Assembly: GCF_963921235.1 (NCBI RefSeq)
Contig: NC_086107.1
Coordinates: 104,286,001 to 104,350,000 of the forward strand
DNA length: 64,000 bases
Source of the DNA: Mobula hypostoma
Lineage: Eukaryota
Reading direction: 5' to 3'
Below, one piece after another: positions 5,101-61,200 of this stretch. Below the pieces are notes generated by a model. It worked only from the letters and a program-made list of their open reading frames with translations, had not been told where the DNA came from and did no database searches. The translations under genes and the position numbers were made by a program. How positions within the stretch are numbered: position 1 is the stretch's first letter; each line of letters begins with the position of its first letter.

Positions 5101-8100
5101 TTGGATTTTATCCAGTACCACACTAGACTTGTCTGCTTTTCTGCCACAACCCAAACAGAATATTAACTCAAATGACAAAAGTTCAAGGGATTTCAGATGT
5201 ACTGGTATGTATACTCCATGGACTCTTTATTAGGTACGCCTGAACACCTACTTTTTATCTAATCAGCCAATCGTGTGGCAGCATAAAAGCATGCAGACGT
5301 GGTCAAGAGGTTCAGCTGTTGTTCAGACCAAACAATAGAATAGGCAAGAAATGGTGACTTTAACCACGGAATGATTGTTGGTGCCAGATGGGGTGGTTTG
5401 AGTACCTCAGAAACTACTGATAACCTGGGATTTTCACACACAGCAGTCTCTAAAATTTACAGAGAATGGTGCAAAAAACATCCATTGCTATACATGTGGG
5501 TGAAAACGCCTTGTTAATGAGCGGTCAGAGGAGAATAGTCAGACTGGTTCAAGCTGACAGGAAGGTGACAGTAACTCAAATAACTATGTGTTACAACAGT
5601 GATGTGCAGGGTGTCATCTATGAACACACAACACGTTGACCTCGAAAAGGATGGGCTACAGCAGCAGAAGACCATGAATATACACTCAGTGGCTACTTTA
5701 TTATGCACAGGAGGTATCTAATAAAGTGGCCACTTAGTGTATGTTGCCTGGGCATTCTTTACTTTGTCCATTGTGTTATTAATTGTCAAAGATCTGAAGA
5801 TTTAATTCATACAAACATAAATTAAATGTCCAGTTTTAATCTGCAAATGAAAGCAACACACAACATTATAAAACACTCAAAGAGTTTTGAAAGATTTTTG
5901 AAGCGGAGGCTGCTATATAAGTGCCAATCTTGTTGTAATTACAGGTTAGTAAAAAGGGGCATGTGAGTGATATCCATCATCGAGTTACCGTGGTAACGAT
6001 GGGAGTCACCTCCACAGACCCCACACTCTATACCCCAGATGTTTTGCTAATCGCTCGGCCCAGTGACCAACAACTGCAGGTATTCAACAGAAACCTGAAG
6101 CAAATCTCACCTTCAGGGTCCAAGCTCCCGACAGGCATCGACAGCCCTTTACAACTGCTGAGGTAAGATGCTCGGTTAAGTTGATTGTTCTGCACTCTGA
6201 ACACACCCGTCTATGTTATTCACATCCTGCCCTTGCACAGATCCCAAATTTGTCCTAGTCCTAGGATATTAAATATCAAAGGGTTTCAAAGTCAAAGTAA
6301 ATGTTATTATCAAAATACATATGTGTTACCATAATCAACCCTGAGGTTCATTTTCCTGTGGGCATACTCAGCAAATCTATAGAATAGTAACTGTGACAGG
6401 ATTAATGAAAGATCAACCAGAGTGCAGAAGACAACAAGCTGTGCAAATGCAAATATAAATAAATAGCAATAAATAACGAGAACATGAAATAACAAGGTAA
6501 AGGGTCCTTAAAGTGAGATCATCTCAATGGATAGGCATGAGTGCAGTTAGCCTCTTTTGTTCAAGAGCCTGATGGTTGAGGGGTAGTAATTGTTCTTGAA
6601 CCTGGTGGCATGAGTCCTGAGGCTCTTGTACCTTCTACCTGATGGCAGCAGTGAGAAGAGAGCATGTTCTGGGAGGTGGGGATCTCTGATGATGGATGCT
6701 GCTTTCCTATGACACGTAGATGTGGTCAAAGGTTAGGAGCGCTTTGCCCATGATGTACTGGACTGAATCCACTACCTTGTGATAGGATTTTCTCTGTTCA
6801 CCACTACCTTTTGCAGGTTTCAACCTGGTTATGGTCACCTCTGGACACTATGACCTGCATCCAAACATTGCCACTGTCTCCCTTTAAACAATCTCGACTC
6901 CTGATGAGCGTGGCCAGACTGTCTCTGAATCCCAGCTTGAATGAGGACCACAAGAAACCTCATCAGCCGGCACAGAATCACTCCTTGAAAAGACCATAAG
7001 GTATAGGGGCAGAATTAGGCCATTTGGCCCATTGAGTCTGCTCCACTACTTCATCATGGGTGATCCAGTTTTCTTCTTTGCCCCAATCTCCTGCCTTCTT
7101 CCCTTATCCCTCCATGCCCTGACCAGAATCAGGTTTATTATCACCGGCATGTGGCATGAAATTTGTTAACTTAGCAGCAGTTCAATGCAATGCATAATCT
7201 AGCAAAGAGAAAAAAAAAATAATAATAATAAATAAAATCTTAAAAATAAGTAAATCAATTATGGTATACGTATATTGAATAGATTTTTAAAAATATGCAA
7301 AATCAGAAATAGTGAGGTAGTGTCCAAAAAAGTGAGGTAGTGTCCAAAGATTCAATGTCCATTTAGGAATTGGATGGCAGAGGGGAAGAAGCCGTTCCTG
7401 AATCACTGAGTGTGTGCCTTCAGGCTTCTGTACCTCCTACCTGAATGGTAACAGTGAGAAAAGGGCATGCCCTGGGTGCTGGGGGTCCTTAATAATGGAC
7501 GTTGCCTTTCTGAGACACCGCCCCCTGAAGATGTCCTGGGTACTTAGTAGGCTAGTACCCAAGTTGGAGCTGACTAGGTTTACAACCTTCTGCAGCATCT
7601 TTCGGTCCTGTGCAGTAGCCCCTCCATACCAGACAGTGATGCAGCCTGTCAGAATGCTCTCCACAGTACAACTATAGAAGTTTTTGAGTGTATTTGTTGA
7701 CATGCCAAATCTCCTCAAACTCCTAATAAAGTATAGCCACTGTCTTGCCCCTTTGTAACTACATCAATATGTTGGGACCAGGTTAGATCCTCAGAAATCT
7801 TGACACCCAAGAATCTGAAACTGCTCACTCTCTCCACTTCTGTTCCCTCTATGAGGATTGTTATGTGTTCCTTCGTCTTACCCTTCCTGAAGTCTACAAT
7901 CAGCTCTTTCGTCTTACTGACGTTGAGTGCCAGGTTATTGCTGCAACACCACTCCACTAGTTAGTATACCTCACTCCTGTATACCCTCTCATCACCACCT
8001 GAGATTCTACCAACAATGGTTGTATCATCAGCAAATTTGTAGATGGTATTTGAGCTATGCAGTCATGTGTGTACAGAGAGTAGAGCAGTGGGCTAAGCAC

Positions 8101-15350: not shown

Positions 15351-16795
15351 CCGCAGGAGGTCAGATGCCAGCCTGGTCTACGGCAAACGACCCACAGGAG
15401 GTCAGATGCCAGCCTGGTCTACGGCAAACGACCCGCAGGAGGTCAGATACTAGCCTGGTCTACGGCAAACGACCAGCTGGAGGTCAGAAGCCAGCCTGGT
15501 CTACGGCAAATGACCCACTGGAGGTCAGAAGCCAGCCTGGTCTATGGCAAATGACCCACTGGAGGTCAGATGCCAGCCTGGTCTACGGCAAACAACCCGC
15601 AGGAGGTCAGATGCCAGCCTGGTCTACGGTAAACGACCCACTGGAGGTCAGAGGCCAGCCTGGTCTACTGGAGGTCAGATGACAGCCTGGTCTATGGTAA
15701 ACGACCCACTGGAGGTCAGAGGCCAGCCTGGTCTACGACAAACAACCCGCAGGAGGTCAGATGCCAGCCTGGTCTACGGCAAACGACCCGCTGGAGGTCA
15801 GATGCCAGCCTCGTCTAAGGCAAACAACCCGCAGGAGGTCAGATGCCAGCCTGGTCTACAGTGAACGGCCCGCTGGAGGTCAGATGCCAGCCTGGTCTAC
15901 GGCAAACGACCCGCTGGAGGACAGATGCCAGCCTGGTCTATGGCAAATGACCCACTGGAGGTCAGATGCCAGCCTGGTCTACGGCAAACACCCACTGGAG
16001 GTCAGATGCCAGCCCGGTCTACTGGAGGTCAGATGCCAGTCTGGTCTACGGTGAACGACCCGCTGGATGTCAGATGCCAGCCTGGTCTACGGTGAACGAC
16101 CCGCTGGAGGTCAGATGCCATCCTGGTCTACGGCGAACGACCCGCTGGAGGTCAGAGGCCAGCCTGGTCTACGGCGAACGACCCGCTGGAGGATCAGAGG
16201 CCAGCCTGGTCTACGGCAAACGACCCGCTGGAGGTCAGATGCTAGCCTGGTCTACGGCGAACGACCCACAGGAGGTCAGATGCCAGCCTGGTCTACGGGA
16301 AACGACCCGCTGGAGGTCAGATGCCAGCCTGGTCTACGGCAAACGCGCACTGGAGGTCAGATGCCAGCCCGGTCTACTGGAGGTCAGATGCCAGTCTGGT
16401 CTACGGTGAACGACCCGCTGGATGTCAGATGCCAGCCTGGTCTACGGTGAACGACCCGCTGGAGGTCAGATGCCATCCTGGTCTACGGTGAACGACCCAC
16501 TGGAGGTCAGAGGCCAGCCTGGTCTACAGCGAACGACCCGCTGGAGGATCAGAGGCCAGCCTGGTTTACGGCAAACGACCCGCTGGAGGTCAGATGCTAG
16601 CCTGGTCTACGGCGAACGACCCACAGGAGGTCAGATGCCAGCCTGGTCTACGGCAAACGACCCGCTGGACGTCAGATGCCAGCCTGGTCTACAGCAAACG
16701 ACCCGCGGGAGGTCAGAGGCCAGCCTGGTCTACGGCAAATGACCCGCAGGAGGTCAGAGGCCAGCCTGGTCAACGGGAAACAACCCACAGGAGGA
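15351..16795 (+). repeat. Minisatellite, 41-bp unit CTGGAGGTCAGATGCCAGCCTGGTCTACGGCAAACGACCCG, ~35-36 copies
   Basis: Period read directly (GGAGG at 15356 and 15397). A few ~28-bp truncated units. 355-bp higher-order duplication in the right half. Confidence 0.97.
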
Positions 16796-37800: not shown

Positions 37801-38945
37801 ATTTGTTAACTTAGCAGCTGCAGTACAATGCAATACATAATAATATAGAAAAAAATAAGTAAATCAATTACAATAAGTATATATGTATATTAAATAGTTA
37901 ATTTAAAAATAGTACAAAAACAGAAATAATATAAAAAATGAGGTAGTGTTCATGGGTTTAATGTCCATTTAGGAATCGGATGGCAGAGGGGAAGAAGCTG
38001 TTCCTGAATCACTAAGTGTGTGTCTTCAGGCTTCTGTACCTCCTTCCTAATGGTAACAATGAAAAGAGGGCATATCCTGGGTGGTGGGGGTCCTTAATAA
38101 TGGACGCTGCCTTTCTGAGGCACCGCTCCTAAAGATGTCTTGGATACTACGGAGGCCAGTGCCCATGATGGAGCTGACTAATTTTACAACTTCCTGCAGC
38201 TTACTTCGATCCTGTGCAGTAGCCACCCCCACCCCCTCCCAGACGGTGATGCAGCCAGTCAGAATGCTCTCTACAGCACTTCTGTAGAAGTTTTCGAGTG
38301 TTTCAGGTGACAAACCAAATCTCCTCAAACTCCTAATGAAATATAGATGCTGTCTTGCCTTCTCTATAGCTGCATCAATATTTTGGGACCAGGTTAGATC
38401 CTCAGAGATCTTGACACCCAGGAACTTGAAATTGCTCACTCTCTCCACTTCTGATCCCTCTGAGAGGATTGGTTCATGTTCCCTAGTCTTACCCTTCCTG
38501 AAGTCCACAATCAGTTCTTTAGTCTTACTGACGCTGAGTGCCAGGTTGTCGTTACGACACCATTCAACTAGTTGGTGTCGGTATATCGCGCTCCTGTACA
38601 CCCTCTCGCCTCCAGCTGAGATTCTACCAACAATAGTTGTATCATCAGCAAAGTTATAGATGGCATTTGACCTGTGCCTAGCCACACAGTCATGGGTGTA
38701 GAGAGAGTAGAGCAGTGGGCTAAGCACACACCTCAGAGGTACAGCAGTGTTGATCATCAGCGAGGAGGAGATATTATTATCAATCCACATAGACTGTGGT
38801 CTTCTGGTTAGGAAGGCGAGGATCCAATTGCAGAGGGGGGTACAGAGGCCCAGGTTCTGTAGCTTTACAATCAATGCTCTGTTCAATCTTGCTCCCTTGA
38901 AGAGATCCCATATAGTATGTATAGTTAACCCCATATGCTTGCGCG

Positions 38946-39029
<84 letters not shown>

Positions 39030-41526
39030 ACACACAGTGGCATGCAAAAGTTTGGGCACCCCTGGTCAAAATTTCTGTTACTGTGAATAGCTAAGCAAGT
39101 AAAAGATGATCTGATTTCCAAAAGGCGTAAAGTTAAAGATGGCACATTTCTTTAATATTTTAAGCAAGATTACTTTTTTTTATTTCCAGTTTTTACAGTT
39201 TCAAAATAACAAAAAAGGAAAAGGGCCCGAAGCAAAAGTTTGGGCACCCTGCACGGTCAGTACTTAGTAACACCCCCTTTGACAAGTATCACAGCTTGTA
39301 AATGCTTTCTGTAGCCAGCTAAGAGTCTTTTAATTCTTGTTTGGGGGATTTTCGCCCATTCTTCCTTGCAAAAGGCTTCTAGTTCTGTGAGATTCTTGGG
39401 CCGTCTTGCATGCACTGCTCTTGAGGTCTATCCACAGATTCTCGATGATGTTTAGGTCGGGGGACTGTGAGGGCCATGGCAAAACCTTCAGCTTGTGCCT
39501 CTTGAGGTAGTCCATTGTGGATTTTGAGGTGTGTTTAGGATCATTATCCTGTTGTAGAAGCCACACTCTTTTCATCTTCAGCTTTTTTACAGATGGTGTG
39601 ATGTTTGCTTCCAGAGTTTGCTGGTATTTAATTGAATTCATTCTTCCCTCTACCAGTGAAATGTTCCCCGTGCCACTGGTTGCAACACAAGCCCAAAGCA
39701 TGATCGATTCACCCCCATGCTTAACAGTTGGAGAGGTGTTTCTTTTCATGAAATTCTGCACCCTTTTTTCTCCAAACATACCTTTGCTCATTGCGGCCAA
39801 AAAGTTCCATTTTAACTTCATCAGTCCACAGGACTTGTTTCCAAAATGCATCAGGCTTGTTTAGATGTTCCTTTGCAAACTTCTGACGCTGAATTTTGTG
39901 GTGAGGATGCAGGAAAGGTTTTCTTCTGATGACTCTTCCATGAAGGTCGTATTTGTGCAGGTGTCGCTGCACAGTAGAACAGTGCACCACCACTCCAGAG
40001 TCTGCTAAATCTTCCTGAAGGTCTTTTGTAGTCAAACGGGGGTTTTGATTTGCCTTTCTAGCAATCCTACAAGCAGTTCTCTCGGAAAGTTTTCTTGGTC
40101 TTCCAGACCTCAACTTGACCTCCACCATTCCTGTTAACTGCCATTTCTTATTTACGTTATGAACTGAGGAAACAGCTACCTGAAAACGCTTTGCTATCTT
40201 CTTATAGCCTTCTCCTCCTTTGTGAGCATCATTTATTTTAATTTTCAGAGTGCTAGGCAGCTGCTTAGAGGAGCCCATGGCTGCTGATTGTTGGGACAAG
40301 ATTTGAGGAGTCAGAGTATTTATAAAGCTTTGAAATTTGCATCACCTGGTCTTTCCTAACGATGACTGTGAACAAGTCATAGCCCTAACAAGCTAATTAA
40401 GGTCTGAGACCTTGGTAAGAGTTATCTGAGAGCTCAAATCTCTTGGGGTGCCCAAACATTTGCATGGTGCTCCTTTCCTTTTTTTTCACTCTAAAATTGT
40501 ACAAAACAAAAATAATACACTAATCTTGCTTAAAATGTTGAAAAGAATGTTTTATCTTTAACTTTATGACTTTTGGAGATCAGTACATCTTCTACTCACT
40601 TAACTATCCACAGTAACAGAAATTTTGACCAGGGATATATATATCCCTTCTCCCTGCACTTTGTTCATCTGCACATTGGTAACAAATGTCACAAACCCCT
40701 TGGTCAAGATGAGGTTGGCCAAGATCTCAGGCATCCTGCTCCTGGCCAGTGTTCAGGTGTTCATGCTGTCTCTCTGGGATGGGGGTGGGTGTGGTATGCT
40801 TCTCTTCTCCTTGCCCCCACCTTTCTACTTATCCTTGGCCAGCCTGCCTTCTAGCAACCTCCTGTCCCCTCCCATGCCTCTGCCAAGCAAATTTGCCGAT
40901 TCCCAGGTTGCCATTGCCTCCTACCATCTACTCACAGAGCCTTTGTATGAACCGGGAAAGGGAGGCGGAAAGAAAAGACAGGGAAGAGATTAAAAAAACA
41001 TGGCTCACATTACAGGAAACTTTAGCAGGGGCAGGGTCTGGTTGCTTGCCAGTGTTGGTTTGTGGAGAGATGCTTTCCCCCTCTTCCCTCTCCTCCTCCA
41101 CTTCTTCGCTCTCGTCCTCCTCATCTTCATCTTCCTCCTCCTCTTCCGGATCATCCTCATCGATGAGCTTCTTCTGTGATGGAGCTGAATGGGAGGACAG
41201 GGCTATCAGTTCACTAACACAGGTAAATGTTGGTGCTTTGCACTGGGGAGCCTTGGCATGTCTCTCATCACCCTTTCGAGGCCTGGTGATTCCAACACTG
41301 AGGTCTCCACCTCCTTATCCCACAAGCCCAACCAGCTCAAGCTTAGTCCAGAACTCCTCTGAGTCAATTTGGGATTCGAGTGGCTGGCCAGTGCTCGAGT
41401 GAAAACACGGATGATTTTTATACACATTTCCCTAATCCTGGGGGGAGTCTGTTGCCCCGGGCTGAGAGGAGGAGAGTACCTGCTGTTGGTGAATGTGCCA
41501 ATTAAGCACAGATGGGACTGGAGGTT

Positions 41527-44500: not shown

Positions 44501-47500
44501 ATGCTCTGTGCGCGCTTTTAGCCAAGTATGTTTGTTGAATATTCAGCTTTGTCGTTTCTGTAACTTGGGGAACATGAATGTTTGGTTGAATTTTTACTGT
44601 CTGTAAATAAATGATTAATATACTTATTCACAGTCAGTGTCTTCTGTCTCACTTGCCAGACTCGCGAACCTGATTCTACGAGGTGGAATGAGGAAACCTC
44701 ATAACTCCCCAAGGAATGACAGTTCACCTCTCATCTTCGTTTGACTGTTCCTCTTTGCCGGGGCAGGCTCCTCCTGATCTTCGTTCGAGTCTCCCATCGT
44801 GAAAATTTTAACCTTCCTGTTGATCTCCTCCACCTCTTCCCGAAAGGCCACAACCTCATCGCCCGCTGGAAACAGACAGGACAGAGGTCATTTTAACTGC
44901 AGGTTGGAACTGGCCAAAATCAGTAGCCACCTCCCAAAGGGTCACAACACCCTGACAGTCCTTCCCAAGAGGGGTATTCCGGACAGAGGTCATCTTAACT
45001 GCAGGATGGGACAGGGCAAAATCAGCAGCCCACTTGGACAGGGTGACTCTGCACGCTGACAGCCCTCCCCAGTAGGGCAATGAGGACAGAGGCACCTCCT
45101 CCTCCAGTAAGACCCACAGGAGAGTTTTCCAGATTCCCATTAGTTGATCTCCCCCTCCTCCCACATTCAAATTCTTTCTCTCTCTCTCTGCTCATTCTAA
45201 AAATTGGTTCCAATTTGACACAATGATAAATGTCACAAATCAGCCTTGTGCTCCTCACTGGAGGTTATCAGAGAGAGAAGACTTAATTTGCTTGCTCTCC
45301 TGCAGTGTTCACTCCTCTCTCCATGGTGAATCTCTGGAGAAAGTTTCAGTGGAGGTGATTCTGGGGTAAGTTTCAGTGGAGGTGATTCTCTGGGGGAAGT
45401 TTCAGTGGAGGTGAAACTCTGGGGAAAGTTTCAGTGTAGTGATTCTCTGGGGAAAGTTTCAGTGGAGGTGAATCTCTGGAGAAAGTTTCAGTGGAGGTGA
45501 ATCTCTGGAGAAAGTTTCAGTGGAGGTGAATCTCTGGAGAAAGTTTCAGTGGAGGTGATTCTCGGGAAATTTCAGTGTACTGATTCTCTGGGGAAAGTTT
45601 CAGTGGAGGTGATTCTTTTGGGGGAAGTTTCAGTGGAGGTAAATCTCGGAACAGGTAACTGTTTGGGGCACAGCTATGCTCACAGTGAGTGAGTAATCAG
45701 CTGAATATTTACAACTCAGAGTGTGGGGTCCAACATTTCAGTCCAAAGATTTCTGTTTGAAGGATGCAGGGTGAGAGGCCTGGGGTTTCAAAGTTTAAAA
45801 TATATTATCAAAGTACAAACAACAGGAATTCTGCAGATGCTGGAAATTCAAGCAACACACATCAAAGTTGCTGGTGAACGCAGCAGGCCAGGCAGCATCT
45901 GTAGGAAGAGGTGCAGTCAACGTTTCAGGCCGAGACCCTTCGTCAGGACTAACTGAAGGAAGCTTCGTCAGTTAGTCCTGACGAAGGGTCTCGGCCTGAA
46001 ACGTTGACTGCACCTCTTCCTACAGATGCTGCCTGGCCTGCTGCGTTCACCAGCAACTTTGATGTGTATTGCTTATCAAAGTACATATATGTTACTATAT
46101 AACCATATAACCATATAACAATTACAGCACAGAAACAGGCCATCTCGGCCCTTGTAGTCCGTGCCGAACTCTTACCCTATCCTAGTCCCACCGACCTGCA
46201 CTCAGCCCATAATCCTCCATTCCTTTCCTATCCATATACCTATCCAATTTAACTTTAAACGACAACATCAAACCTGCCTCAACCACTTCTGCTGGAAGCT
46301 CGTTCCACACAGCTACCACTCTCTGAGTAAAGAAGTTCCCCCTCATTTTACCCCTAAGCTTTTGTCCTCTAATTCTCAACCCATGTCCTCTTGTTTGAAT
46401 CTTCCCCACTCTCAATGGAAAAAGTCTAACCACATCAACTCTATCAATCCCCCTCATAATTTTAAACACCTCTATCAAGTCCCCCCTCAACCTTCTACGC
46501 TCCAAAGAATAAAGACCTAACTTGTTCAACCTTTCTCTGTAACTTAGGAGATGAAACCCAGGCAACATTTTAGTAAACCTCCTCTGTACTCTCTCAATTT
46601 TATTGACATCTTTCCTATAATTCGGTGACCAGAACTGTACACAATACTCCAGATTTGGCCTCACCAATGCCTTATACAAATTCAACATTACATCCCAACT
46701 CCTATACTCAATGCTCTGATTAATAAAGGCCAGCAAACCAAAAGCTTTCTTCAAACTTCTACATGCAACCCTGAGATTGATTTTCTTGCAGGCAGTCACA
46801 GTAAATACAAGAAACACAATAGAATCAATGAGCAATCGCGCCCAATGGACGGACAACAACCAATGTGCAAACGGCAACAAGCTATGCAAATACAAAGAAA
46901 TGTTAATAATAAATAAATGAGCATTAAATATCAAGAACATGAGATGAAGAGTCCTTGAAAGTGAGTCCAGTTCAGTGATGTCGAGTGAAGTTATCCCCTC
47001 TGGTTCAAGAGCCTGATGGTTGAGGGGTAATAACTGTTACTGAATCTGGTGTGTGTCCTGAGGCTCCTGTACTTACTTCCCATTGATAGCAGTGAGAAGA
47101 GAGCACGGCGGGCGTCCTTGATGATGGATGCTGCTTTCCTGCAACAGCGCTCCATGTAACTAGGCTCAGTGGTGGGGAGGAATTTACCTGTGTTGTACTG
47201 GGCCGTATCCACTTATTTTTGTAGGCTTTTCTATACAAGGGTATTGGTGTTTCCATACCAGGCTGTGATGTAACCGGTCAATATACTCTCCAACACGTAT
47301 CTATAGAAGTTCATCACAGTTTTAGACGGTCTGCCGAATCTTTGCAAACTTTGAAGACTGCACTTTCTTCGTAATGGCATTTACGTGCTGGGCCCAGGAC
47401 AGATCCTCTGAAATGAGAAGAAATTAAAGTTGCTGACTTGCCCCACCTCTGATCTTCCGATGAAGATTGATTCATGGACTACGGTTTCCTCCTCCTGAAG

Positions 47501-49211
47501 TCAATCATCAGCTCTTTGGTCGTACTGACACTAAGTGAGAGGTTGCTGTTGTGGCAACACTCAGCTGGATCTTCACTCTCTCTCCAACCTGTTGATTCAT
47601 CACCACCTTTGATTCGGCCAACAACAGTGGTACAGACAGCAAACTTGAATATGGTATTGGAGCTGTGCATAGCCACACAATCAACGGTATAAAGCAAGTA
47701 GAGCAGGGGCTAAGCACACAGTCTTGTGGTGCACGTGCAGATGGAGATTGTGGAGGAGATGTTGTTGCCAATTCAAACTGACCGGGGTCTGAAAGTCAGG
47801 AAATCCAGGATCCAGTTGTATAAGGAGGTATTGAGGCCAAGCTCTTAAAGCTTTTTGATTAGTTTTGAGGGGATGATAGTATTGAATACAGAGCTGTAGT
47901 CAATGAAGAGCATCCTGATGTACGCATCTTCACTGTCCAGATGTTCCAGGGTTGAGTGACGAGCCAATGAGATGGCATCTGCTGTGGACCTGTTGCCCTG
48001 GTAGGCCAACTGGAGCAGATCCAAGTCACTTCTCAGCTGGCGTTGATACGTTTCATCACCAACCTCTCAAAGCACTTCATCACTGTGGATCTACGTGCTA
48101 CCGGATGATAATCATTGAGGTAGGTCACCACAGTCTTCTCAGGCACAAGTATAATTGAAGCCTGCTTGAAGCAGTTGGGTACCTCAGACTGCTGAAGCGA
48201 GAAGTTGAAGATATCAATGAACACACCATCCATCTGATCAGCACAGGTCTTTGGTACTCTGCCAGGTACCCTGTCTGGGCCAGATGCTTTCTGTAGGTTC
48301 ACCCTCCTGAAGGATGCTCTCACATCACCCTGAGAGACTGAAATCACAGGGTCATGGGGGTCTGTGGGAGTTTATGAAGGTTCCCCCAAGTTTTATTGAT
48401 CAAAAGGCAGTCAGCTCATCTGGGAGTGAAACGTTGTTGTCACCTATGTGTCTTGGTTTCACTTTGTAGGAGGCGATAGCATTCAACCCCTACCACAGCT
48501 GTCGAGCATCCTTCAGTGATTCAAGTTTGGAGAAGCCCTTGGGTCTTACCAACGTATCCTGTGTGTCCGGAGTGAGCATTATTTCCAAGAAACACAGAGG
48601 AGTTCTGTGGTTGTCCTTTATGACATCACCTGGAATAATCCCTGGTTAGTGACATTCGTCTCTGAATTATTACTACAGCTCCTCTCTGATCTGCCACAAA
48701 GCTAAATTTGTTGGACACTGTGAGATCATGGGATCCGGGACAGACACCAGAAGCAAGCAGTGGAAAGAGTGAGGGAAACACTGAACGGTCCTCTCACTCT
48801 CACACCAGCCCCTCTTTCTCAGTTGCCCTCCTCCCTCACCTGCCTTCCACCCCTCGCCCTTTCCTCAGCACTCATACCTCCCCGTAGAATTTCACCTCCT
48901 ATGTATATAACCATATGACGCTGGGAAGGGCGCGATGGGCTTTGGCCAGGTCCGATGGTGGTGGGATCTCTCTCACCTTTGCACTGCTGACTTTTGTCTC
49001 TTTTTGCTCCCGTTCGCGATTTCACGTTTGGAAAGCTTTGGCGTTTGGCCCTGCTGGCGATCGCTGTCAAGTCATCGACTAATGTTCCTGTACAGAATGG
49101 AGACGAAATCAGTGAGAAAGGCAGAGATGGGGGGTGCGGGGAGAAGAGAGAGGCAGAGATTGAAAAAAACAGAAGGGGTGCAGGGGGTACTGAGAGAGAA
49201 AGAGCAAGAGT

Positions 49212-49247
<36 letters not shown>

Positions 49248-52200
49248 GAGAGACAGAGAGACATTGAGAATTGGACAGAGTTCATGACAATCAGACGGAA
49301 AATCCAACCTGAGTTGCAAAAGGACTTGGGAGTGCAGGATTCCCTGAAGGTTAACTTGCAGGTTGAATCAGCAGTGAGGAAGGCACATGCATAAAAGCAA
49401 GGATGTAATGCTGAGGCTTCATAAGGCATTGATCAGGCCTCACTTGGACTATTGTGAACAGTTTGAGGCCCCTTATCTAAGAAAGAATGTGCTGGCATTG
49501 GAGAGGGCTCAGGGGAGGTTCACGGGAATGATCCTGGGAATGAAAGAGTGATTGTATGAGGGGTACTTTTTGGCTCTGGGCTTGCACTTGCTGGAACTTA
49601 GAAGAAAGAGGGAGGGTCTCATTGAAACCTATTGAACGTTGAAAGGCCTGGACAGAATGGATGTGGAGAGAATGTTTCTTATAGTGGGGGGGGGGGCGGC
49701 TCTGGGATCAGAGGGTGGTGAATCTGTCGAATTTGTTGCCACAGGCTGCTGTGGAAGCCCAGATTATTGGATGTATTTAAGAGGAAGGTTGATAGGTGCT
49801 TGATTGGTCAGGGCATGAACAGTTATGAGGAGAAGGCGGGAGAGTGGGGTTGAGAGGGAAGATGGATCAGCCATGATGAAATGGCTGAGCAGACTTGATG
49901 AGTTGGACGGCCTAACTCTTGCTCCTATATTTTTATGGTCTTTAAAATACACAGCAATGCACGGCACATTGTGTTTGGTGGACACTAATCCCACCTTCCA
50001 GCACTGGGTCCGTAGAACTACAGATCCCAACTCTTCAAGTAGCCAGACTCATACAGCAGAACAAAAGCTGACCACCAAGTGCCCATCTCCATCATCAGCA
50101 CTTTAACCCTAGCCTTCCATGCCATGGTGATTTGTGCTTGGCTAGACACGTCAGACACGTCTGTCTCCACCACTCTCTCAGACCACATGTTCCATACTCC
50201 ATCTGCTCTCTGGGCGAGAAAGATCTTCCTCAGCTCCCCTCTAAACCTCTTCTCCCTTATCTTGCCAATTCCCTCTAGTTTTAGATACCACTGGTGTGGG
50301 GAAAAGCCTCCTACTACTGACCCTGGCCAGTCCCCTTCTAACTTTACATAACCCTGGCGTCATGAAACCTAGAAGAGCACAGCGCAGGAAACAGGCCTTT
50401 GGTGTATGAGGTCTGTGTTGAACAAGATGTCAACTTAATCAACACATGGTCTTTATCCCTCCCTCTCCTGTTAACATATACCTCTTAAACCTTACCATCA
50501 TATCTGCTTCCACTATTTCCCCTGGCAATTCATTCTGTCTTCGATAGCCAAGTCTATTTTCAATCCAATCTATCAAGTCTCCTTGGATCAGCCTACCATG
50601 AGGGACCTTGTCCATGTAAGATCTTTATACAAGGACGGATCTAAAGCCTCAGTTTGGTTCGAAACGCTGTCACTTGCTTCTATTGTTCGTACGATTGTAG
50701 TTTTTTTCTCCTTTCTCTTTCTTTACGCAGTGGTTTCAGTCTTTGTTTTTTTTTATTGGGTTCTTTGGGTTTCTTGCTTTGTGGCTGCCTGTAAGCAGAC
50801 AAACCTCAAGGCATGTAATTTATACATTCTTTGATAATAAATGCACTTTGAATATACAGCGTCCGCTGCCCTACCCTAATCAATCATCAGTCCTCTCCCT
50901 AGCCTCCTCCACTGCAAGGAAAACAAAGATTCTCTGCCCTGTCTCTACTCATGACTGAGACGGACCGTTCCAGACAATGGGTCAATGAGTCTCGTCTGCA
51001 CCCTCTCCAGTGCAATGGCCACTTCTGCTCTCTAGTACCTCTTCAGACAGTGAGTCCTGTCCACCTCTGGTGACGAGAACAGATTGAGAAGTGATGAGAT
51101 GAGGGATGGAAGACATTAAGGGATGGTGGGAAGCGACACACATGCACGAACACACACACTAATACATGCAAGTGCACACACCTGCGCGCACGCAGACTCG
51201 CGCACACACAGGGGAAGAGGGGAGGAGATGAAGGATACGTCAGAGGGAGAAAGTAAGCTGCCTTGGACTTGACTCTCTTGGAATGTGATCTGCTGGGGAT
51301 TTTTCTCTGATTTCCCTCACACACTTCCCTGACAACAGGAAGAAGACAATGAGAGATCACTGGGAGAACCACATCCAAAAAAGGGTAATCATACTCTCTA
51401 AAGACTGGCTTGAGATCTTTATCTCGGAGTACACTTAGATTTCATAAGGAACGTGCATACTGTAAGAGCAGAATTAGGCCATTCGACCCATCGATTCTGC
51501 TCTGCCATTCCATCATGGCTGACTTATTATCCCTTTCAACCCCATTCTCCTGCCTTCTCCCCATAATCTTTGATGCTCTCACCAATCAAGAACCTATCAA
51601 CCTCCACTTTAAATATACCCAATGACGTGGCCAACACAGTATCTGTGACGAGATTTACCACCCTCTGGCTAAAGAAATTCCTCCTCATCTCCATACTAAA
51701 GGGATGTCCTTGTATTCTGAGGCTGTGCCCTCTGGCACAGACTCCCCCCACTATAGGAAACATGCCCTCCACATCCACTCTATCTAGGCCTTCCAGTATT
51801 CGATAGGTTTCAATAAGATCCCTCTTTATTCTTCTTTTTCAGTTTTTGGCAAATGTACCAATGAGGGTAAAGACTTTGTAGAATATTTGAATGATACAGC
51901 TAAACCTGTAAGGTTCAACTTCACATACTGCTGTTTAGTAAATGCCAACGTGGGAGATTACTGTGAACGTATAGATCAGTGAGAGCTCATGTCCATGTGG
52001 TGAAGAGGTTCAGGAGAAGGAGCTGATATTCTGCACACCAGGAGCAATCTAGAATTTAAGGGGACGCCGACCTTTCTTCCGTCTCGGTCCTCTCTCAGCC
52101 TTTACCGCTGGGTGCTCACACAGCCTGAAGAGATTTTGTGGCTTCTCCGCAGCGTTCTCCCGCAGCTCCTCCACGGATACCTCCAGCAGATCTGTGTGGA

Positions 52201-55200
52201 ATTAGGAAAGAGCAACTCAGGTCAACAAATGGAGACTGTGAGAGTCGGCACTAAGGAAGAAGAGGATGAGTCAAGTGAGGAACAGTTGGTGGAAGTGGAG
52301 GACATCAGTGTCACCTCTGGTGTTTGTTCCTCAGTTTGGTTAATGGGGTGGATTTCTCTCTGCGTGCACGGGGAGCCCAGGACTGGTCCAGCTCCAGCTC
52401 ACTGGCAGATATACAGACTATGTCTGGTGGTTTTACTCTGGATAGTTGACTACTCAGACTGGCCATTCCCAAGGGTTGGTCACTCTGTGATCAATAGATG
52501 ATCAAAGCATCAAAAAAAAAGATTAGCTTTATTTGTCACGTGCACAACAAGGTAAACAGTGAAATGCATCGTCTGCATCAACAACCAACACAGTCTGGAT
52601 ATGTGCTGGGCCGAGCAGTTTACAACTGTCACCACGCGTCCAGCACCAACAGAGCATACCCACAACTTCTCAACTCAAACACTACGTCCTTTAGAATGTG
52701 GAAGGGAACCGGGGCACCCAGGGGAAACCCACACGGCCGTGGGGAGACCGTGCCATCTCCTCACACACACTGGCGGGATTTGAACCCTGACCTTCCGATT
52801 GCTGGCACGGTAAAGCTTTACGTTAATCACTGTGCGACCATACCGCCATTGGACATCGGAGCTGTTCCAAATTGCTCCCAGGGGAGCGATTCTCCTGACA
52901 GAACCTCAGGCAGCGGGATATCCACTTGCTTCCCTCCACTCCCCCTCCCCGTTTCCGCCCAATTGCCCTCCGGAACTTTCAACCCTTTACACCCGTGTTT
53001 CAAGTGGTTGGTGCTTTGGCTGTGCATTGCTGCCTTCCCACAGAGAGGCATCAGATACCGTGGCGAAAAACTCAAGGACACGCCAGAGTATTGGAACATT
53101 CTAGAAATCAGAAAAGGACAAATAAAACAAAATGGGAAAACGCAAGTCACTAACGTAAAGCAGCAAGAAAAATAATATCGGAAAGGAGTGTCACTAAATA
53201 TATAACAAGAGTTTAAGAAGATTAAACAAGAGGCTGAGCTTGCTAAATTAATGAAGAAAGAACATGAAAAGGCCACAGCAGAGGAAGGTAAGGAAGAACA
53301 GAAGCACCATGAACAAGCCTTAAAATATCAGAAGGAGCTTGAAATGCAAGTTGATGAAAATGAACAAAGGAGACAGGAAGCATATGATGAATTCTTAAAA
53401 GATAAACTAAGGGTGGATGAAATTGTAAGGAAGATCTATGATGAAGATCAGAGGTAAACTTTATTTCAAGCATTTACTGTTTTTTGAGTTTTGTCCAAAG
53501 AATGTTGTACAATGTAAAGATATATTTCTGTCCTTTAGTAATTACTACTTCCAGAAATGTTTTTCAAGGTGAACTTTTGTTTAAGTAAAATGTAGCATTG
53601 TCAAGTTGTCTCCTGGAGGTCAGCGAGCACGATCTGTGTATTTGGTAAGGGCAGTTGGATATAATGGCCTCTGTGAAGTGTCATGAATTAATATCAAAGC
53701 TTCACATTTCTTTTCAATATCTTTTCAGTTATGTTTAAACTGAGCTCATATGACCAATTTGTCAAAAGTGCCAACTAATCACGAGTTGAGAGTAAAAGGG
53801 CAAAAGTTTAGGGGTAACACGAGGGGGAACTTCTTTACTCAGAGAGTGGTAGCTGTGTGGAACGAGCTTCCAGCAGAAGTGGTTGAGGCAGGTTTGATGT
53901 TGTCGCTTGAAGTTAAATTGGACAGCTATATGGACAGGAAAGGAATGGAGGGTTATGGGCTGAAGGCAGGTCGGTGGGACTAGGTGAGAGTAAGAGTTCG
54001 GCACGGACTAGAAGGGCCGAGAGGGCCTGTTTCCATGCTGTAATTGTTATATGGTTATATGGAAGAGAGCAGCTAAAGTGGACATTGGTCCCCTTGAGGA
54101 TGAATGAGACTGGGGAATTAGTTATGGAGAGACACTTATCTTTTTTAAATTAACAACTTATAATTTGTCTTTGTAAAGACAAAAAGTGACTGACAGGAAA
54201 TAATAAAGCAGTGTCGGTGGAGAGGGTTAGTGGGCAGAGGTGTTGATCAGCCTCACTGCTTGGGGAAAGCAACAGTTTTATTTATTCATTTACTGAGTTA
54301 CAGCGCAGAATAGATCCTTCCGGCCCTTTAACCATGTCGCCCAGCAAACCCTGATTTAACCCTTTCCTAATCACGGGACAACCTAGAATGACCAATTAAC
54401 CTACCAACCACTACGTCTTTGGACTGTGGGAGGAAACCAGAGCACCCGGAGGAAACCCATGCGGTCACGGGGAGAACGCACAAACTCCTTAGAGGCAGCG
54501 ATGGGAATTGAACCCGGGTTGCCTGCACTGTAAAGCGGGTGTGCTAACCACTTGTACTGTGCTGCCTCTTGAGTCTGATGGTCCTGGTATGAATGTTACG
54601 TAGCCTCCTCCCTGATGGGAGTGCAACAAACAGTCCATGAGCAGGGTGGCTGCCATCCTTCCAGGGGTGGTGGTGTGGCATGGGTGCAGACACATCCAGC
54701 TCTGAGACACCAGGCAAGATCATTTGTTTCCAAACAATTGGTTTATTGATCATTTCAGAATGTCTCTCTGGTGCTTCCCACTCCCTCCCCTCTCCCTGTC
54801 CTCTTCCCACTCTCAGTCCACAATAGGGACCCATATCAGAATCAGGTTTATCATCACTCACATGTGTCATGAAATTTGATGTTTTATGCGGCAGTACAGT
54901 GCAAAACATAAAATTACTACAGTAGTGTGCAAAAGTCTTCGATACCCCAGCCTAAGGCTTTTGCACAGTACTGTAGTAATTTTACACATGACAGTAATGA
55001 AGCAATTACCCATTTGAATTTCCAACACCAATTGATGAAGTGTTCCATAAAAGGTTATTTCATAAACTAAAGGTTGATACATCGTCATTAATAACGGTTT
55101 AGTAAACTATCAGGAATGTGGAAAAATGGATCATTTTCATCACGGCAACCTGTGAGTTGTGGGATTTCATATGAAACAGCACCGGGTCCTCGACTACTTA

Positions 55201-58200
55201 AATCCTTTGGTGATTACTTAGAGCAGGAGTTTCCCACCTGGGGTTCAGAGGCCCCTTGCTTAGCGCTATTGGTCCATGGCATAAAAAAGACGGAGGTGCT
55301 GAACGTGTTGTAGCCAAATTTGCTGGCAATACATAGAAAGATGGAAACGTGGGACAAAGCAGTCTATGTAGGAATATATATTGGCTACACAAGAGGGGAA
55401 AGCCTTGGCAGATGGAGTATAGCAGGAGGAAAATACAAGATTAATTGATGGATAGAAAGAGAAGCCAAAAAAAAAATCTATCCTACGCATTGAAGGATTT
55501 TGGCACATTCTTATTTAAAGCTTAGAAATTTAGCAAGGAGATACGACAAGTAATTAACTTAGACAAATTGACCTGCAAAGAACGTGGAGTGCAAAGGTTA
55601 GGGAAATTTGCCACAAATTTAGAAGGCTGGACATGGAGTACTGAATACAGTTTAGTCCTCCGTGGTTAAGCGCAGTTCAGAATAAGATCACTTCTTGAAA
55701 CAGATTGATTTATAAGGAATGGTTGACTAGGTTGGGCCAAATGCAATGGAGCTTATAACAATGAAGAACATCAAATGGAAGAGTACGCTCCTATTTCTAT
55801 TTTCTTAGGTGTCATAAGCTTATCTCAAACTGACAACTGACCCCACCGACACACGATTTCTCAGTCCAGCTCTACATCAATCATAGGGAGGGAGAATTTC
55901 TCAAATCTCTTGAAATCCTGAACTCCACAGAACCAACTTATCATCAAGTCTCTCGCCTTCATCCAGTGTTTCTTCACTAATCACAAATATCTCACCATTG
56001 TTATCTCAACTCCAGATATGAAACTTTTCATCAGGCCCCCAGCCATACCTTCTTCCAGGTTCCACGCCTGTTCCTTGTCCAATACAGCCTTGTCATGATT
56101 ATCTTGGTCCAGAACCAAGCAGTCCCCATTATCCAGAGACTCCGGATAGAGCTGCGTATTGCAAATCTCCTCCACGTTGATCTTGCAGGAGAAATCTTGG
56201 AAAGGTGCAACAGTGAGACAAATTGGAGATGGAGAGAGAAAACTGCACCTATTTCTCTGGTTAGTCTGATCACCTGCTAACTGACCTCCATGTCACCCAC
56301 CAGCATTTCAATCTGAATCTCTCCCATTCTCTACTAGAAGAATCTTCGGCTACTCAGTATTGAGGTCTCCAAGGTGACAAGCAGGTCTGGGTAGGGGCAT
56401 TCCACCTTGTTTAATTTCATCCAATTCACATCGAGATCAATGGTGTGCTGATTAAATGGCACAGTTCCCTGGCTACAGATACACTTCTTTTTCAATCTTT
56501 TTATTAATTTCAAAATACAGAAACAGAACATAGCCATAATACAAATAGAAGGAGATGTAATGTTACACTTAAAAAAATTAATTGCAAAACCAAGTAGTGG
56601 AAATTAACAAAGCTCCCAAACATGTAGAACTAACCACGGATAATACAAAATAAAAAAAAACTGGGAAAAAAATGAAAAAGAAAAAAAAACTACAGATACA
56701 CTTCTGAGTCAAACATTCCTGGTGTTACGCAACAGGAACCAGGATAAATGCCTCCCGATTCTCCCGTGCTAATCTTGTCATTTCCTTCGTTCAGCACAGC
56801 CTTTACAGCTCAAAGTCAAAGTCAAAATAAATTTATTATCAAACTAAGTATAGAGTCATAGAAAAGTACAGTACAGAAACAAGCCCTTCAGCCCATCTAG
56901 TCCATGCCAAACAATTTACAACTTCCACTCCCATCAACCTGCACCTCTGTACCCCTACCATCTATGTATCTATCCAAGTATACGTGACCACATGCTACCC
57001 TGAGATTTGTTTTCTTGCAGGTATTGAAGGGAAAATAAAATACAACAGAGTTTATGAAAACCATAAACAAAGACCGGCAAGAAATCACTATGCAAAAGAA
57101 GACAAATTGTGCCAAGTAAGTAGATGAGCCAAGAGCATGAGTTGGTGAGGCGACATTTCATCTGCGAATATGCTGGGGTTGTCTGTTGTGTCCAGCGCTC
57201 CCGATGAGGCCTCTTCTGCACTGGTGAGACCCCTCGTAAATTGGGGGACCACTTCATCAAACACTTCCATACCCTCCACCACAAGCAGGACTTCCTGGCG
57301 GCCAAACATTTTAATTCAGATTTCCCTTCCCGCTCCAAAGTGTCGGTCCATGGCCTCCTCCTGTGCCAAGCTGAGGCCACCCTCATTGTGGAGGAGCAAC
57401 ACCTTCTATTCTGTCTGGGTACCCTCCAACCTGATGGCATGAACACCAATTTCACGCCCTGCCTTCCCCTATTCTCCACTCTGACCTTTCACCTCTTCTC
57501 ACTTGTCTCTTACTTCCCCTTGGGTTGCCTCCTTCTTCCTTTTCTCTTATGCTCTACTCTTCCCTCCTATCAGTCTCCCTCTTCTCCAGCCCTTGACCAG
57601 GGGTGCAGTGCTAGCCGGAGCGCGCCCGGCTCCTCTTTAAGAAAAAAGCCAAAATATACAAGCTAGTTAATTAGGTGCCACCCAGGGTGATTTGAGTATC
57701 TCAGAAACTGCTGATCCCCTGGGATTTTTATGCACAACAGACTCTGGAGTTTACAAGGAATGGTGCCAAAAACAAAAAATAAAATCCAGCAAGTGGCTGT
57801 TCTGTGAGTGAAAACATCTTGTTAAATCCACTCACTGGATTTTTTTTTGTTTTTGGCACCATTCTTTGTAAACTCCAGAGTCTGTTGTGCATAAAAATCC
57901 CAGGAGGTCCGCAGCTTCTGAGACATTCAAATCACCCAAGGTGGCACCTAATTAATTAGCTTGTTTATTTCATGTTTTTTCTTAAAGAGGTGCTGTATGC
58001 GCTCCAGCTAGCACTGCACCCCTTCCCTTGACCTTTCCCACCCACCAGGCTTCACATATCACCTTCCAGCTATCCTCCTTCCGCTTCTCCCACCTTTTCA
58101 TTTTCCTTCCCCCACCACCTTTCCATTCTGGCACCTTCCCTCGTCTTTCTCAGTCCTGAAGAAGGGGCTCGCCCAAAATGTTGACTGTCTATTCTTTTCC

Positions 58201-61200
58201 ATGGATGCTACCTGACCTGTTGAGCTCCTCCAGCATTTTGTGTGTATTGCAGAGTCCTGGAAAGAGAATCCGTAGGCTGTGGATTCAATTTGGATTTGAG
58301 CTGGCTGAAGTTATCCAAGCTGGTCAGGAGCCTGATGGTTGTACAGTTAGAACTGTTCCTGAATCTGGTGGTGTGGGACCTCCTGCCCAGTGATAGAGAT
58401 GAGAAGAATGCATGGCCCGGGTGTTTGGGGTCCTTGATGATAGAGGCTGCTTTCTTATGGCGGTGCTCCTTGTAAATGTCCTCAATGATGGGGTGGGCTG
58501 GGCTGTATCTGACACTTTCCGTTTCAGGGCATTAATGTTTCCATATCAAGCCATGCTGCAGTCAGCCAGGGTACCCTCCCAATGCACTTCTAATATTACA
58601 TCTCCTATTAGCATCCTGCTTGACCCAGACCTTTTCTCTCCGAGAGAAATCTCCGTTTTGTTTCTCTCTCCTCCAACAAAGACCAATTCAATGGAGCTTA
58701 CACGTGACATCAAAGATCTTACCCCTAACCCACTGACCCGGAGACAATTCCAAGCCTATATGAGGGGTGATTGATAAGTTTGTGGCCTCAGGTAGAAGGA
58801 GTCAATTTTAGAAAACCTAGCACATTTATTTTTCAGCATAGTCCCCTCCTACATTTACACACTTAGTCCAGCAGTCGTGGAGCATACGGATCCCTTCTTT
58901 GTAGAAGTCAGTGTCTTGGACCTCCAGAAAGTGGTCCACAGCAGGGGTGATTGATAAGTTTGTGACCTAAGGTAGAAGGAGATGAGTTATTACCCTTCAA
59001 ACTTTCTGCATAATCACTCAAAGAGTTGAACTGTGTGTGCATGTAATGAGAGTTGTATAACTCATCTCCTTCTACCTTAGGCCACAAACTTATCAATCAC
59101 CCCTGCTGTGGACCACCTTCTGGAGGTCCAAGACGCTGACTTCTACAAAGAAGGGATCCGTATGCTCCACGACTGCTGGACTAAGTGTGTAAATGTAGGA
59201 GGGGACTATGCTGAAAAATAAATGTGCTAGGCTTTCTAATATTGACTCCTTCTACCTTAGGCCATGAACATATCACACCCCTCGTACATTAATTAGGTGA
59301 TGGACCAAATCTTTCTGTGGCAAGTTGCTCCCAGCTGTGTCCACAAGACTAATCTCATATCCGACACTGATTTCACAACCTATAGACTCACTTTCAAGGA
59401 CTCTACAATTCATGTTCTCAATATTATTTATTTTATATATATTTACACAGTTTGCCTTCTTTTGCACTTTGGTTGTTTGTTGGTCTTTATTTCTGTGTAG
59501 TTTTTTTATTGATTATCTTGTATTTCTTTGTTCTACTGTACATGGAAATTAATCTCAGGGATGGGTTACACCTGAACCTGAGGGGTACCAGTATCCTTGC
59601 AGGCAGGTTTACTCGAGCTGTGGGGGAGAGTTTAAAATCATTCGGCAGGGGGACGGGAACCAGAGTGATGGGGCGAAGGATGGGGCGATTGGTATAGAAG
59701 TCAACGCATTGCATAGTGAGACTGTGAGGAAAGACAGGCAGATGACAGGGCAAAATTGCAGTCAGTGGGACGAGTTATGGGGGCAAAATCAACAAGGTTG
59801 ATGAACATAGGACTGAAGGTATTATGTTTAAATGCAGGCAGTACAAGGAATAGGTGGATGATCTTGTAGTGCAACTAGTGATTGGCAGGTGTGACTTTGA
59901 GTCATTGAGGCATGGTTGAAAGAAGATTATAGTTGGAAACTTAACATCCAAGGATACACATTGTGTTGAAAGGACAGACAGGGAGACAGAGGCGGTGACA
60001 TGACTCTGTTGGTAAAAAATTTAATCAAATCTTTAGAAAGAGGTGACAAGAGAATCAAAAAAATGTAGAACCCTTGTGGGCAGAGTCAAGAAAATGCAAC
60101 GGTAAAAAGGACCCTGATGGGAGTTATACATACACAGATAGATTGGAAAAATCAGGTTGGTGCTGGATCTCAAGAGAGAGAATTTATAGAATACCTATGG
60201 GATGGCTTTTTAGTGCAGGTTGTGGTTGAGTCCAGTAAGGGAAACGTAATTCTATTGGGTGCTGAGGAATGAACCAGATTTGATTAGGGAACTTAAGGTA
60301 AAGGAACCCTTAGGAAACCGTGACCATAATATGATCAAATTCACCCAGCAGTTTGAGAGGGAGAAGATAAAGTCAGGTGTATCAGTATAACAGTGCAGTA
60401 AAGGAAATTACAGAGGTATGAGAGAGGAGCTGGCCAAAGTTGATTAGAATGGGACACCCTCAGGGATGATAGCAGAACAGCAATGGCTGGAATTTCTGGA
60501 GGCAGTGCAGAAACTACAGGATAGATACACCCCAAAGATGAAGAAGTATTCTAAAGTGAGTATGAGGCAACCATGCGCTTTTTAAGGAATAAATGTGTAG
60601 GCTATTTTCTAACTTACTTACTGTCCATTACGCCGCTGGCGTTTAGGGCAGCAGTGAAGGTCCTCCATCTCTGGCAGTGCTCAGAGCTTCCTTCATTATG
60701 TCAGTAGTTTTTTCTCAGTTTTCAATACTATCAGTCATGCAAGTCCCGGGTGGAAGCTCAGGAATTCCGTCACACTCAGATGTAGCAGGAGCCTTCATTG
60801 CTGTTTCCATAACAATTTTGCTTTACCATTCAGGGTTGTTAGCCGTGAGCAGAACCCCTAACCCTGGAAGACCGGTGGGCCATTTGTAGTCTGGCCTTTG
60901 ACCTGTTTGGCATGGGTGACCCTACCAATTGCCAAAGCTCTGACTCCGGCCAACATAGCTCTCTGGGTCATTGAGGCACGCAAGCCAACCAAACCCAACA
61001 TCAAGGTTGTAGTCCTCTTGAGGACCATTTTCTAAATGTGGAGAAAATTCAGAAATTAGAGGTGCAAAGGGTCTTGGGAATCCTTGCGCAGGATTCCCAA
61101 GGAAGGCAAATGCAATGTTAGCATTCTTTTCGAGACGACTAGAACGTGATGCTCAGGGTTAATAAGGCATTGGTCAGACTACACAGAGCACTGTAAACTG

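Follow-up and report, generated by a model that had tools for sequence, protein, structure and literature searches.

The closest described systems are retroelements that carry host RNA. According to the accessible text, the SVA 5' transductions of UQCRC1 and LINC02916 combined canonical splicing with subsequent intron read-through and ended at the 3' end of the element (PMC12593883), and SVA depends for its movement on the L1 machinery, which is relaxed and reads poly(A) (PMC3287187). In SVA_F1, a subfamily with at least 84 copies in the portions of the reports available, MAST2 exon 1 is spliced into the SVA (PMC3287187, PMC12593883). For stringent LINEs, the accessible sections describe strict recognition of the 3' tail by the zebrafish L2 ORF2 (PMC4176376) and template-switch chimeras, namely, U6-L2 in platypus, with 1-9-bp target-site duplications (TSDs), and one U6-CR1 in turkey (PMC4476161). 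CR1 tails carry a hairpin and an 8-bp microsatellite (PMC5729268, PMC8665684), and a table lists HE1/HER1 as a CR1-tailed SINE pair of sharks and rays (PMC3747384), as far as the open parts of these sources extend. Reviews, in the parts that are accessible, hold that CR1 sequence recognition limits the formation of retrocopies (PMC3747384, PMC5470649, PMC3136929). No report of a CR1 5' transduction of spliced host exons was found in the open-access literature, from which subscription journals are mostly missing.

We examined an insert of 851 nt at 53212-54062 on the plus strand of the window (the whole stretch of DNA that was analysed, 64,000 nt) and found it to be a CR1-tailed, partly spliced retrocopy of MNS1. 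From 5' to 3', it was composed of 12 nt of an upstream exon, a 230-nt exon, 326 nt of intron, and a 283-nt CR1 3' end. Like the UQCRC1 and LINC02916 cases, as these appear in the accessible text, it has spliced host exons, a kept intron start, and an end at an intronic element; movement in trans and an RNA made from an upstream host promoter would be further likenesses, which are presumed for MNS1. Unlike the SVA cases, it has no poly(A) and is 5' truncated to 12 nt of the upstream exon, and its element is a 283-nt CR1 stump with a hairpin and 8-bp repeats, from a clade regarded as stringent. SVA_F1 also has a host exon on the 5' side of the retroelement, but there the exon is spliced into the element, according to the available text, whereas the MNS1 insert keeps the intron up to the CR1 and is present as two copies in one of the organisms compared, organism A.

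The U6-L2, U6-RTE, and U6-CR1 chimeras (PMC4476161, accessible part) share with the insert a cellular RNA before a short LINE 3' end, one short TSD, and the absence of poly(A), but the 5' part of the MNS1 insert is a Pol II pre-mRNA. A template-switch origin like that of U6-L2 is improbable for the insert; a second genomic copy appears to have had the junction already, in which case no template jump is needed. The CR1-tailed SINEs TguSINE1 and PittSINE are comparable, in the open sections of the report, as noncoding RNA made mobile by a CR1 hairpin and microsatellite tail (PMC5729268). Unlike them, the insert had no tRNA head, internal promoter, or Rfam match (none in 52000-55200) and was present as two copies in organism A, as judged by depth; an insert of this type would rely on the promoter of the host gene, and daughter copies would therefore not normally copy again. 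A classical processed pseudogene (PMC5470649, accessible part) has in common with it the loss of an intron at the exact splice junction, 5' truncation, and a TSD, but the MNS1 insert keeps 326 nt of intron and has a LINE tail in place of poly(A).

Anatomy and limits of the insert

The features assigned to the locus, with coordinates as positions of the window, were as follows.

53052..53206, plus strand: left target-site DNA, outside the insert; probably a decayed CR1 ORF2 linker
53207..53211, plus strand: left copy of the 5-bp target-site duplication AAGAG, adjoining the start of the match to an mRNA-like contig
53212..53223, plus strand: 5' truncation point and last 12 nt of the upstream MNS1 exon, from the alignment of the mRNA-like contig
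53224..53453, plus strand: complete MNS1 exon of 230 nt (residues 153-228), from protein matches, with both ends set by contigs
53454..53779, plus strand: kept first 326 nt of the next MNS1 intron, starting GTAAAC, from an organism C contig and organism A bubbles
53780..54062, plus strand: 5'-truncated CR1 3' end, with the last ~67 ORF2 codons, a 3' UTR hairpin, and the 8-bp tail repeat
54063..54067, plus strand: right copy of the target-site duplication AAGAG, directly after the tail; identity seen in the window sequence only
54063..54104, plus strand: right target-site DNA, an old CR1 ORF2 fragment (71% over 14 amino acids)
46103..46760, minus strand: longer copy of the same CR1 family, used as the reference (92% over 278 nt)

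Public contigs that matched 52850-53785 were obtained from 4 of 24 runs and comprised DNA of organisms A, B, and C and a run of organism A that was guessed to be RNA. The contigs were aligned to 52835-53830 at 82% likeness; the right end of the insert lies outside the compared stretch.

The first-pass annotation had placed the partly spliced MNS1 retrocopy with its CR1 tail at 53050..54062. This description was retained, but the first ~160 nt were found not to belong to the insert. They had been read as an X-box, a leader, and an ATG at 53132 opening a frameshifted MNS1 N terminus. The 31-codon "N terminus" matched no PDB sequence at an E value of ≤10, although six MNS1 sequences were among those searched, and in comparisons with 5 MNS1-like N termini, 18, 63, 38, 95, and 100 of 100 shuffles did as well as the real sequence. 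Furthermore, the mRNA-like contig aligned nowhere upstream of 53212. Leader, ATG, and N terminus are thus target-site DNA rather than MNS1. The letters of the X-box-like GATACCGTGGCGAA (53054-67) are present, with 3 mismatches (2 on the other strand) to what we take to be the X-box consensus, but 71 positions of the window scored equally well (≤2 mismatches), and the motif is not part of MNS1.

The 3' part of the insert (53780-54062) was 92% identical (256/278) to the longer copy at 46380-46103. Translation of this reference copy (46103..46760) gave 1283 RT-bearing relatives among 2386 candidates. The tail aligned at 75% amino acid identity with the last 67 residues of the LINE ORF2 protein P0007 and was matched by 119 of 120 LINE ORF2 proteins at an E value of <0.01. 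Most of the latter were stork and turtle RT proteins, which are not named CR1 in their sources; bird LINEs are mostly CR1 according to the accessible text of one review (PMC3136929). The proteins nearest to the CR1 elements of the window came from rays and sharks. A hairpin was detected in the tail (z score of -2.19, with 4/200 shuffles as good) and in the 46-kb copy (z score of -3.01), and the 8-bp tail repeat was of the ATATGGTT type, unlike the amniote ATTCTRTG. By its ORF2 C terminus, hairpin, and 8-bp repeat, the tail is recognizable as a CR1-type 3' end, as had been claimed from the sequence at the outset; the insert itself contains no RT domain. Contigs of the CR1 family diverged at 53780-53786, which leaves the 5' breakpoint uncertain by a few bases. 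The family is very abundant, with 2 copies having this tail in 64 kb and a summed contig depth of >500,000 over its 5' end.

No AATAAA was present in 53212-54120, and neither poly(A) nor an A-run was detected at the 3' end of the insert, which ends in 8-bp repeats. These features bear on the enzyme that made the copy. The same MNS1 RNA, ending at the intronic CR1, could have been copied by a Tx1/L1 or RTE RT, with the CR1 merely ending the transcript. Another LINE clade is present in the window, as a Rex/RTE-like RT at 38050-38967, and the VGP survey, in its accessible part, credits CR1 or Tx1 by correlation only. The absence of both poly(A) and AATAAA, an end in the CR1 family's own 8-bp repeats like that of the ordinary copy at 46103, and a flanking repeat of ≤5 bp all argue against another enzyme, which we regard as quite improbable.

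The splice junction, the retained intron, and a second copy

The open frame of 230 nt at 53224-53453 aligned with MNS1 residues 153-228. Its translation was 82% identical to P0001, with 136 relatives found, and it matched 6 PDB sequences (best E value of 1.7e-13) and the Pfam family TPH (E value of 2.5e-13). The 3' limit, AG|GTAAAC, was exactly the point at which the mRNA-like contig was spliced, so that the open MNS1 segment first noted from the letters was confirmed in both identity and extent. This contig (1669 nt, from the run with the guessed RNA label, and spliced at both ends of the exon) aligned without gaps to 53212-53453 with 97.5% identity and 6 differences, 5 of which are listed inside the 230-nt exon; 3 of these 5 change the amino acid. 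Past 53453 it carried on with other letters, i.e., it was spliced at the GT. The 12-nt piece and the 230-nt exon are presumably exons 4 and 5, by the numbering of human MNS1.

Genomic MNS1 contigs parted from the insert at the other end of the exon. The organism C contig aligned from 53224 only, with 934 nt unaligned before that point, and reached 53544 through the GT, and an organism B contig (record 18) began at 53224. In organism A, the contig over the 5' junction ended at 53253, which is 30 nt past 53223 and corresponds to a branch at 53223|53224 in a 31-mer graph; we take the word size of the contig graph to be 31 letters, and the same 30-nt arithmetic also fitted 53240, 53346, and 53620. 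The probability of at least 11 of 12 matches by chance in the 12-nt upstream-exon piece was ~1.5e-5. Since the mRNA-like contig covers 53212-53453 while the genomic MNS1 contigs part at 53223|53224, one intron has been spliced out, and on these alignments 53223|53224 is an exon-exon splice junction and the strongest evidence for an RNA intermediate. The first-pass annotation had noted a jump with no acceptor at this point. There is indeed no AG before the exon (the window has TT at 53222-3), but the meaning of the jump had been missed, and intron loss had been cited near the ATG, at the exon 1-2 junction, which is not where it occurred. The letters SLRRL arise when the 12 nt of upstream exon are translated out of frame; in frame, they give FKKI.

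The intermediate distinguishes the insert from a piece of MNS1 duplicated at the DNA level, from a portion of the real gene, and from a chimera of the assembly. The exon, intron, and CR1 are colinear with genomic DNA, as a duplication would leave them, but the 12 nt of upstream exon abut the 230-nt exon precisely at the splice site, and the intron between them is missing. Retained introns had been named beforehand as a sign of DNA-level duplication, and the loss of one intron at 53223|53224 largely refutes that origin. An assembly chimera is contradicted by the 5' junction, which was bridged by independent contigs in organism A (0 differences) and organism B (record 17, with 8 differences and 1 gap over 418 nt). 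Together, these explanations have next to no probability.

The 326 nt at 53454-53779 had a GC content of 33%. They are real MNS1 intron, as the organism C genomic contig continues from the exon past the GT as far as 53544, and the description of some 325 nt of AT-rich, intron-like DNA proved correct. An exact-pattern scan for the exon-intron boundary in public metagenome contigs gave 0 matches.

A second copy of this region was detected in organism A. Bubbles over the intron part had two arms each, with 0 versus 6 and 0 versus 5 differences, and depths of 21 to 26, compared to 9 to 13 for single arms, indicated two copies of the insert region. The second copy had the letters of the mRNA-like contig at 53270, 53288, and 53306, and at 53283 it read A, as in organism B, while the RNA-like contig and organism C read G. 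In view of the two copies indicated by depth and the mRNA letters at 53270, 53288, and 53306, the second copy is most likely the parental MNS1.

The arms over 53620-53751 in organism A (0 and 5 differences; depths of 13.4 and 12.4) ended together. At 53772 a sole contig was listed, with a depth of 17.8 and a T where the window has a C; this depth fits one copy (12.5 to 16.8 expected) better than two (20 to 26.8). The alignment of this contig extended 33 letters further, to 53804, which lies 25 nt inside the CR1, and the loose end behind 53804 equalled window positions 53830-53856, corresponding to a 25-nt CR1 deletion that the window lacks. The matching distances suggest that the row at 53772 and the loose end at 53804 are one contig crossing the intron-CR1 junction. 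A CR1 at the same position and with the same 5' breakpoint, which had been anticipated in the parental locus, was thus found in another genomic copy, by one contig of one run among the contig rows listed. An allele of the insert, or another retrocopy, could also account for this contig. In organism A the junction arm with the window's own letters was absent, and organism B had none, so contigs are missing at 53772. Organism C was uninformative on this junction, as its MNS1 contig leaves at 53544; its lack of contig cover over 52835-53051 and 53545-53778 carries no weight.

The shared junction bears on two further explanations. By template switching, the CR1 RT would have begun on CR1 RNA, copied 283 nt, and jumped to a half-spliced MNS1 pre-mRNA, the parent never having carried this CR1. 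This would yield an identical anatomy and one TSD, and it has precedents in the stringent-LINE chimeras (PMC4476161) and in a proposal for CR1-tailed SINEs (PMC5729268), both in the accessible parts of those papers. However, the intron-CR1 junction recurs in the diverged second copy of organism A, an observation that speaks for read-through into a CR1 within the intron rather than for template switching, and no contig listed in organism A or B led into other intron DNA at 53772. Template switching is therefore considered unlikely. Alternatively, a retrocopy of an intron-terminated MNS1 RNA could have been joined later by an unrelated CR1 at its 3' end, and the abundance of the CR1 family makes chance adjacency conceivable. 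Such a pair of events is very improbable: the second genomic copy has the same junction, a single short repeat encloses both parts, and inspection of the insert sequence revealed no A-run between intron and CR1.

Target site, age, and related copies

The MNS1 part and the CR1 were enclosed by one duplication of AAGAG (53207-11 and 54063-67; chance of ~0.03), and its left end was set independently by the start of the mRNA-like contig alignment at 53212. Organism B read G at 53208, inside the left repeat, and an organism C contig stopped just before it; the ancestral repeat was therefore perhaps shorter, maybe only 3 bp. Two 6-bp repeats, AGAGAG (53042/54064) and AGCAGC (53159/54068), were rejected as TSDs since neither adjoins the end of the MNS1 homology.

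The right flank matched residues 431 to 444 of the CR1 ORF2 protein P0263 with 71% identity over 14 amino acids (E value of 1e-4), and with each of 3 other ORF2 proteins, 0/100 shuffles were as good. These residues follow on from those to which the left flank (the 50 residues before) aligned with frameshifts. When the left flank was aligned, anchored at its end, to a profile of 5 shark/ray ORF2 linkers, 6, 22, and 21 of 300 shuffles were as good under three frameshift penalties, which is moderate evidence, and a local alignment to the ORF2 profile gave 9/300. Three ORF2 proteins of other subfamilies gave 17, 33, and 12 of 40 shuffles as good, a tblastn search with 8 shark/ray proteins gave no match at an E value of <0.05, and in an anchor scan of the ORF2 profile a position within the MNS1 exon shared first place with 53210. 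Taken together with the right flank, the left flank is probably an older CR1 ORF2 fragment, and the insert probably landed inside it. An exact-pattern scan for the old-CR1 motif in public genome, viral, and metagenome contigs gave 0 matches.

The left flank was covered by one contig each in organisms A and B, with no second copy. An organism C contig of 681 nt matched 53052-53207 at 87% without gaps and then diverged, and could represent the empty site or a paralogous old CR1. Among the organism C contigs listed, none crossed the 5' junction. As organism B shares this junction, the insertion is dated by the alignments to before the split of organisms A and B. The insert differed from the mRNA-like contig by 2.5% and from the organism C gene by 4.1% plus gaps.

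In organism B, 4, 6, 10, and 3 contigs covered 53415, 53509, 53551, and 53712, with summed depths of 97, 81, 135, and 49, although summed contig depth does not equal copy number. Single contigs had depths of 8 to 15, only two arms were present at 53310-53420, and the depth dropped at 53719-53752. As a lead, this suggests that organism B has extra copies of the 3' part, a pattern expected from repeated 5'-truncated transductions.

Proposed origin and wider meaning

The reading that we consider likely is a CR1 5' transduction, in which a half-spliced MNS1 RNA ran on into a truncated CR1 within the intron and was retrotransposed in a single event. In this sequence of events, a 5'-truncated CR1 would lie in the sense orientation 326 nt into an MNS1 intron. 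The MNS1 promoter would then drive a germ line RNA (MNS1 is expressed in mouse testis, according to the accessible part of PMC6128653), from which, as seen in the insert, the upstream intron had been removed by splicing while the downstream one remained. The RNA may either have ended at the CR1 tail or have been primed internally. That an MNS1 transcript was the template is shown by the spliced junction, the transcription start having been lost through truncation. Among the contigs compared, no RNA with the intron-CR1 form was found. The ORF2 protein of an active relative would have bound the CR1 hairpin and tail repeat in trans and primed at the tail, as suggested by the form of the 3' end, the lack of poly(A), and published biochemical work on stringent LINEs. 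Reverse transcription would have copied the CR1, the intron, the exon, and the splice junction, in the order seen in the anatomy of the insert, and stopped 12 nt into the upstream exon. The product would have landed in a probable older CR1 ORF2 fragment before the divergence of organisms A and B. The insert lacks its own start and promoter, and of the 5 exon differences listed, 3 alter the amino acid, so that it is probably dead and shows mobilisation rather than a new gene.

This anatomy respects CR1 stringency yet copies host exons, and in principle a sense CR1 3' end in any intron can tag a pre-mRNA. The insert is thus of value as a testable exception to CR1 stringency. The genome-wide signature would be an exon junction, an intron stub, and a CR1 tail, all within one short TSD, and the parent would carry this CR1 too. 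Copies of this kind hold intron DNA and few junctions, and pipelines based on intron loss would therefore tend to overlook them. A broader proposal is offered tentatively, and we lean against it at present: the CR1 stump in the MNS1 intron may be a recurrent source that fired several times, with the extra 3'-side copies in organism B among its products, and intronic sense CR1 tails may be a general route for moving exons in sharks and rays. If true, a germ line gene would have become a host-promoter-driven, CR1-mobilised retroposon, and a stringent LINE would make intron-bearing retrocopies that carry exons together with splice donors.

Retrocopies had been taken to be rare in CR1-rich genomes. 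In the accessible parts of the sources, this holds for birds (PMC5470649, PMC3136929) but not for cartilaginous fishes, for which the VGP survey preprint gives a count of 14,081 retrocopies, equal to 5.4% of annotated loci, with CR1 or Tx1 credited on the basis of correlation.

The first-pass annotation had the insert lying antisense in another probable testis gene, a host that is putative here. Four candidate exons close to the insert on the minus strand matched no Pfam family above the cut-off, and one of them had no Atlas match above 0.87. The minus strand around the insert holds open stretches that resemble exons and end in splice-site-like sequences, and tubby-family exons were detected on the same strand at about 21, 31, 32, and 41 kb.

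Possible extra MNS1-derived copies and an X-box match

Public DNA contigs of a related species that shares the 5' junction of the MNS1-derived insert were aligned to the window. Over positions 53390-53720, up to 10 contigs aligned, with a summed depth of 50 to 135 compared to 8 to 15 per single contig. On the basis of these alignments, it is possible that this species carries extra copies of the 3' part of the MNS1 exon and the intron. The first-pass annotation had noted an X-box-like sequence at 53054-67, upstream of the MNS1 piece; a strict match to the X-box consensus was detected only at 5984-5997 across both strands of the window.

Minus-strand exons and exon-like stretches

20840-41240 (-), exons of a tubby-family gene, with the Tub domain encoded at 20.9, 31.1 and 32.3 kb and an acidic exon lying at 41.1 kb
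44720-44870, 48950-49090, 51238-51438, 52073-52192, 52314-52484, 55996-56196 (-), open stretches that resemble exons and are bounded by splice-site-like sequences

The best PDB match of the tubby-family exons was TUB, and the gene is assigned at the family level. No Pfam family was detected for the four of the six exon-like stretches that were searched, and the stretches may make up an extended 5' portion of the tubby-family gene, or they may belong to another gene.

Repeats and transposable elements

15351-16794, minisatellite, 41-bp unit, higher-order 123/355-bp structure
38050-38967, Rex/RTE-like RT fragment, adjoining the transposase
39333-40341 (-), Tc1/Sleeping Beauty-like transposase, spanning two long open frames of 206 and 176 aa
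45325-45647, 29-bp array, 11 copies
45830-46075, 57620-58020, 58760-59285, three long near-palindromic stretches (by-eye inspection)

The near-palindromic stretches are probably head-to-head repeat fragments or MITEs. Among relatives of the window's CR1, two LINE ORF2 proteins (P0040 and P0075) with 70 to 71% identity to this element carried the database labels Proteus mirabilis and Carnobacterium maltaromaticum and probably derive from fish DNA contaminating bacterial assemblies.
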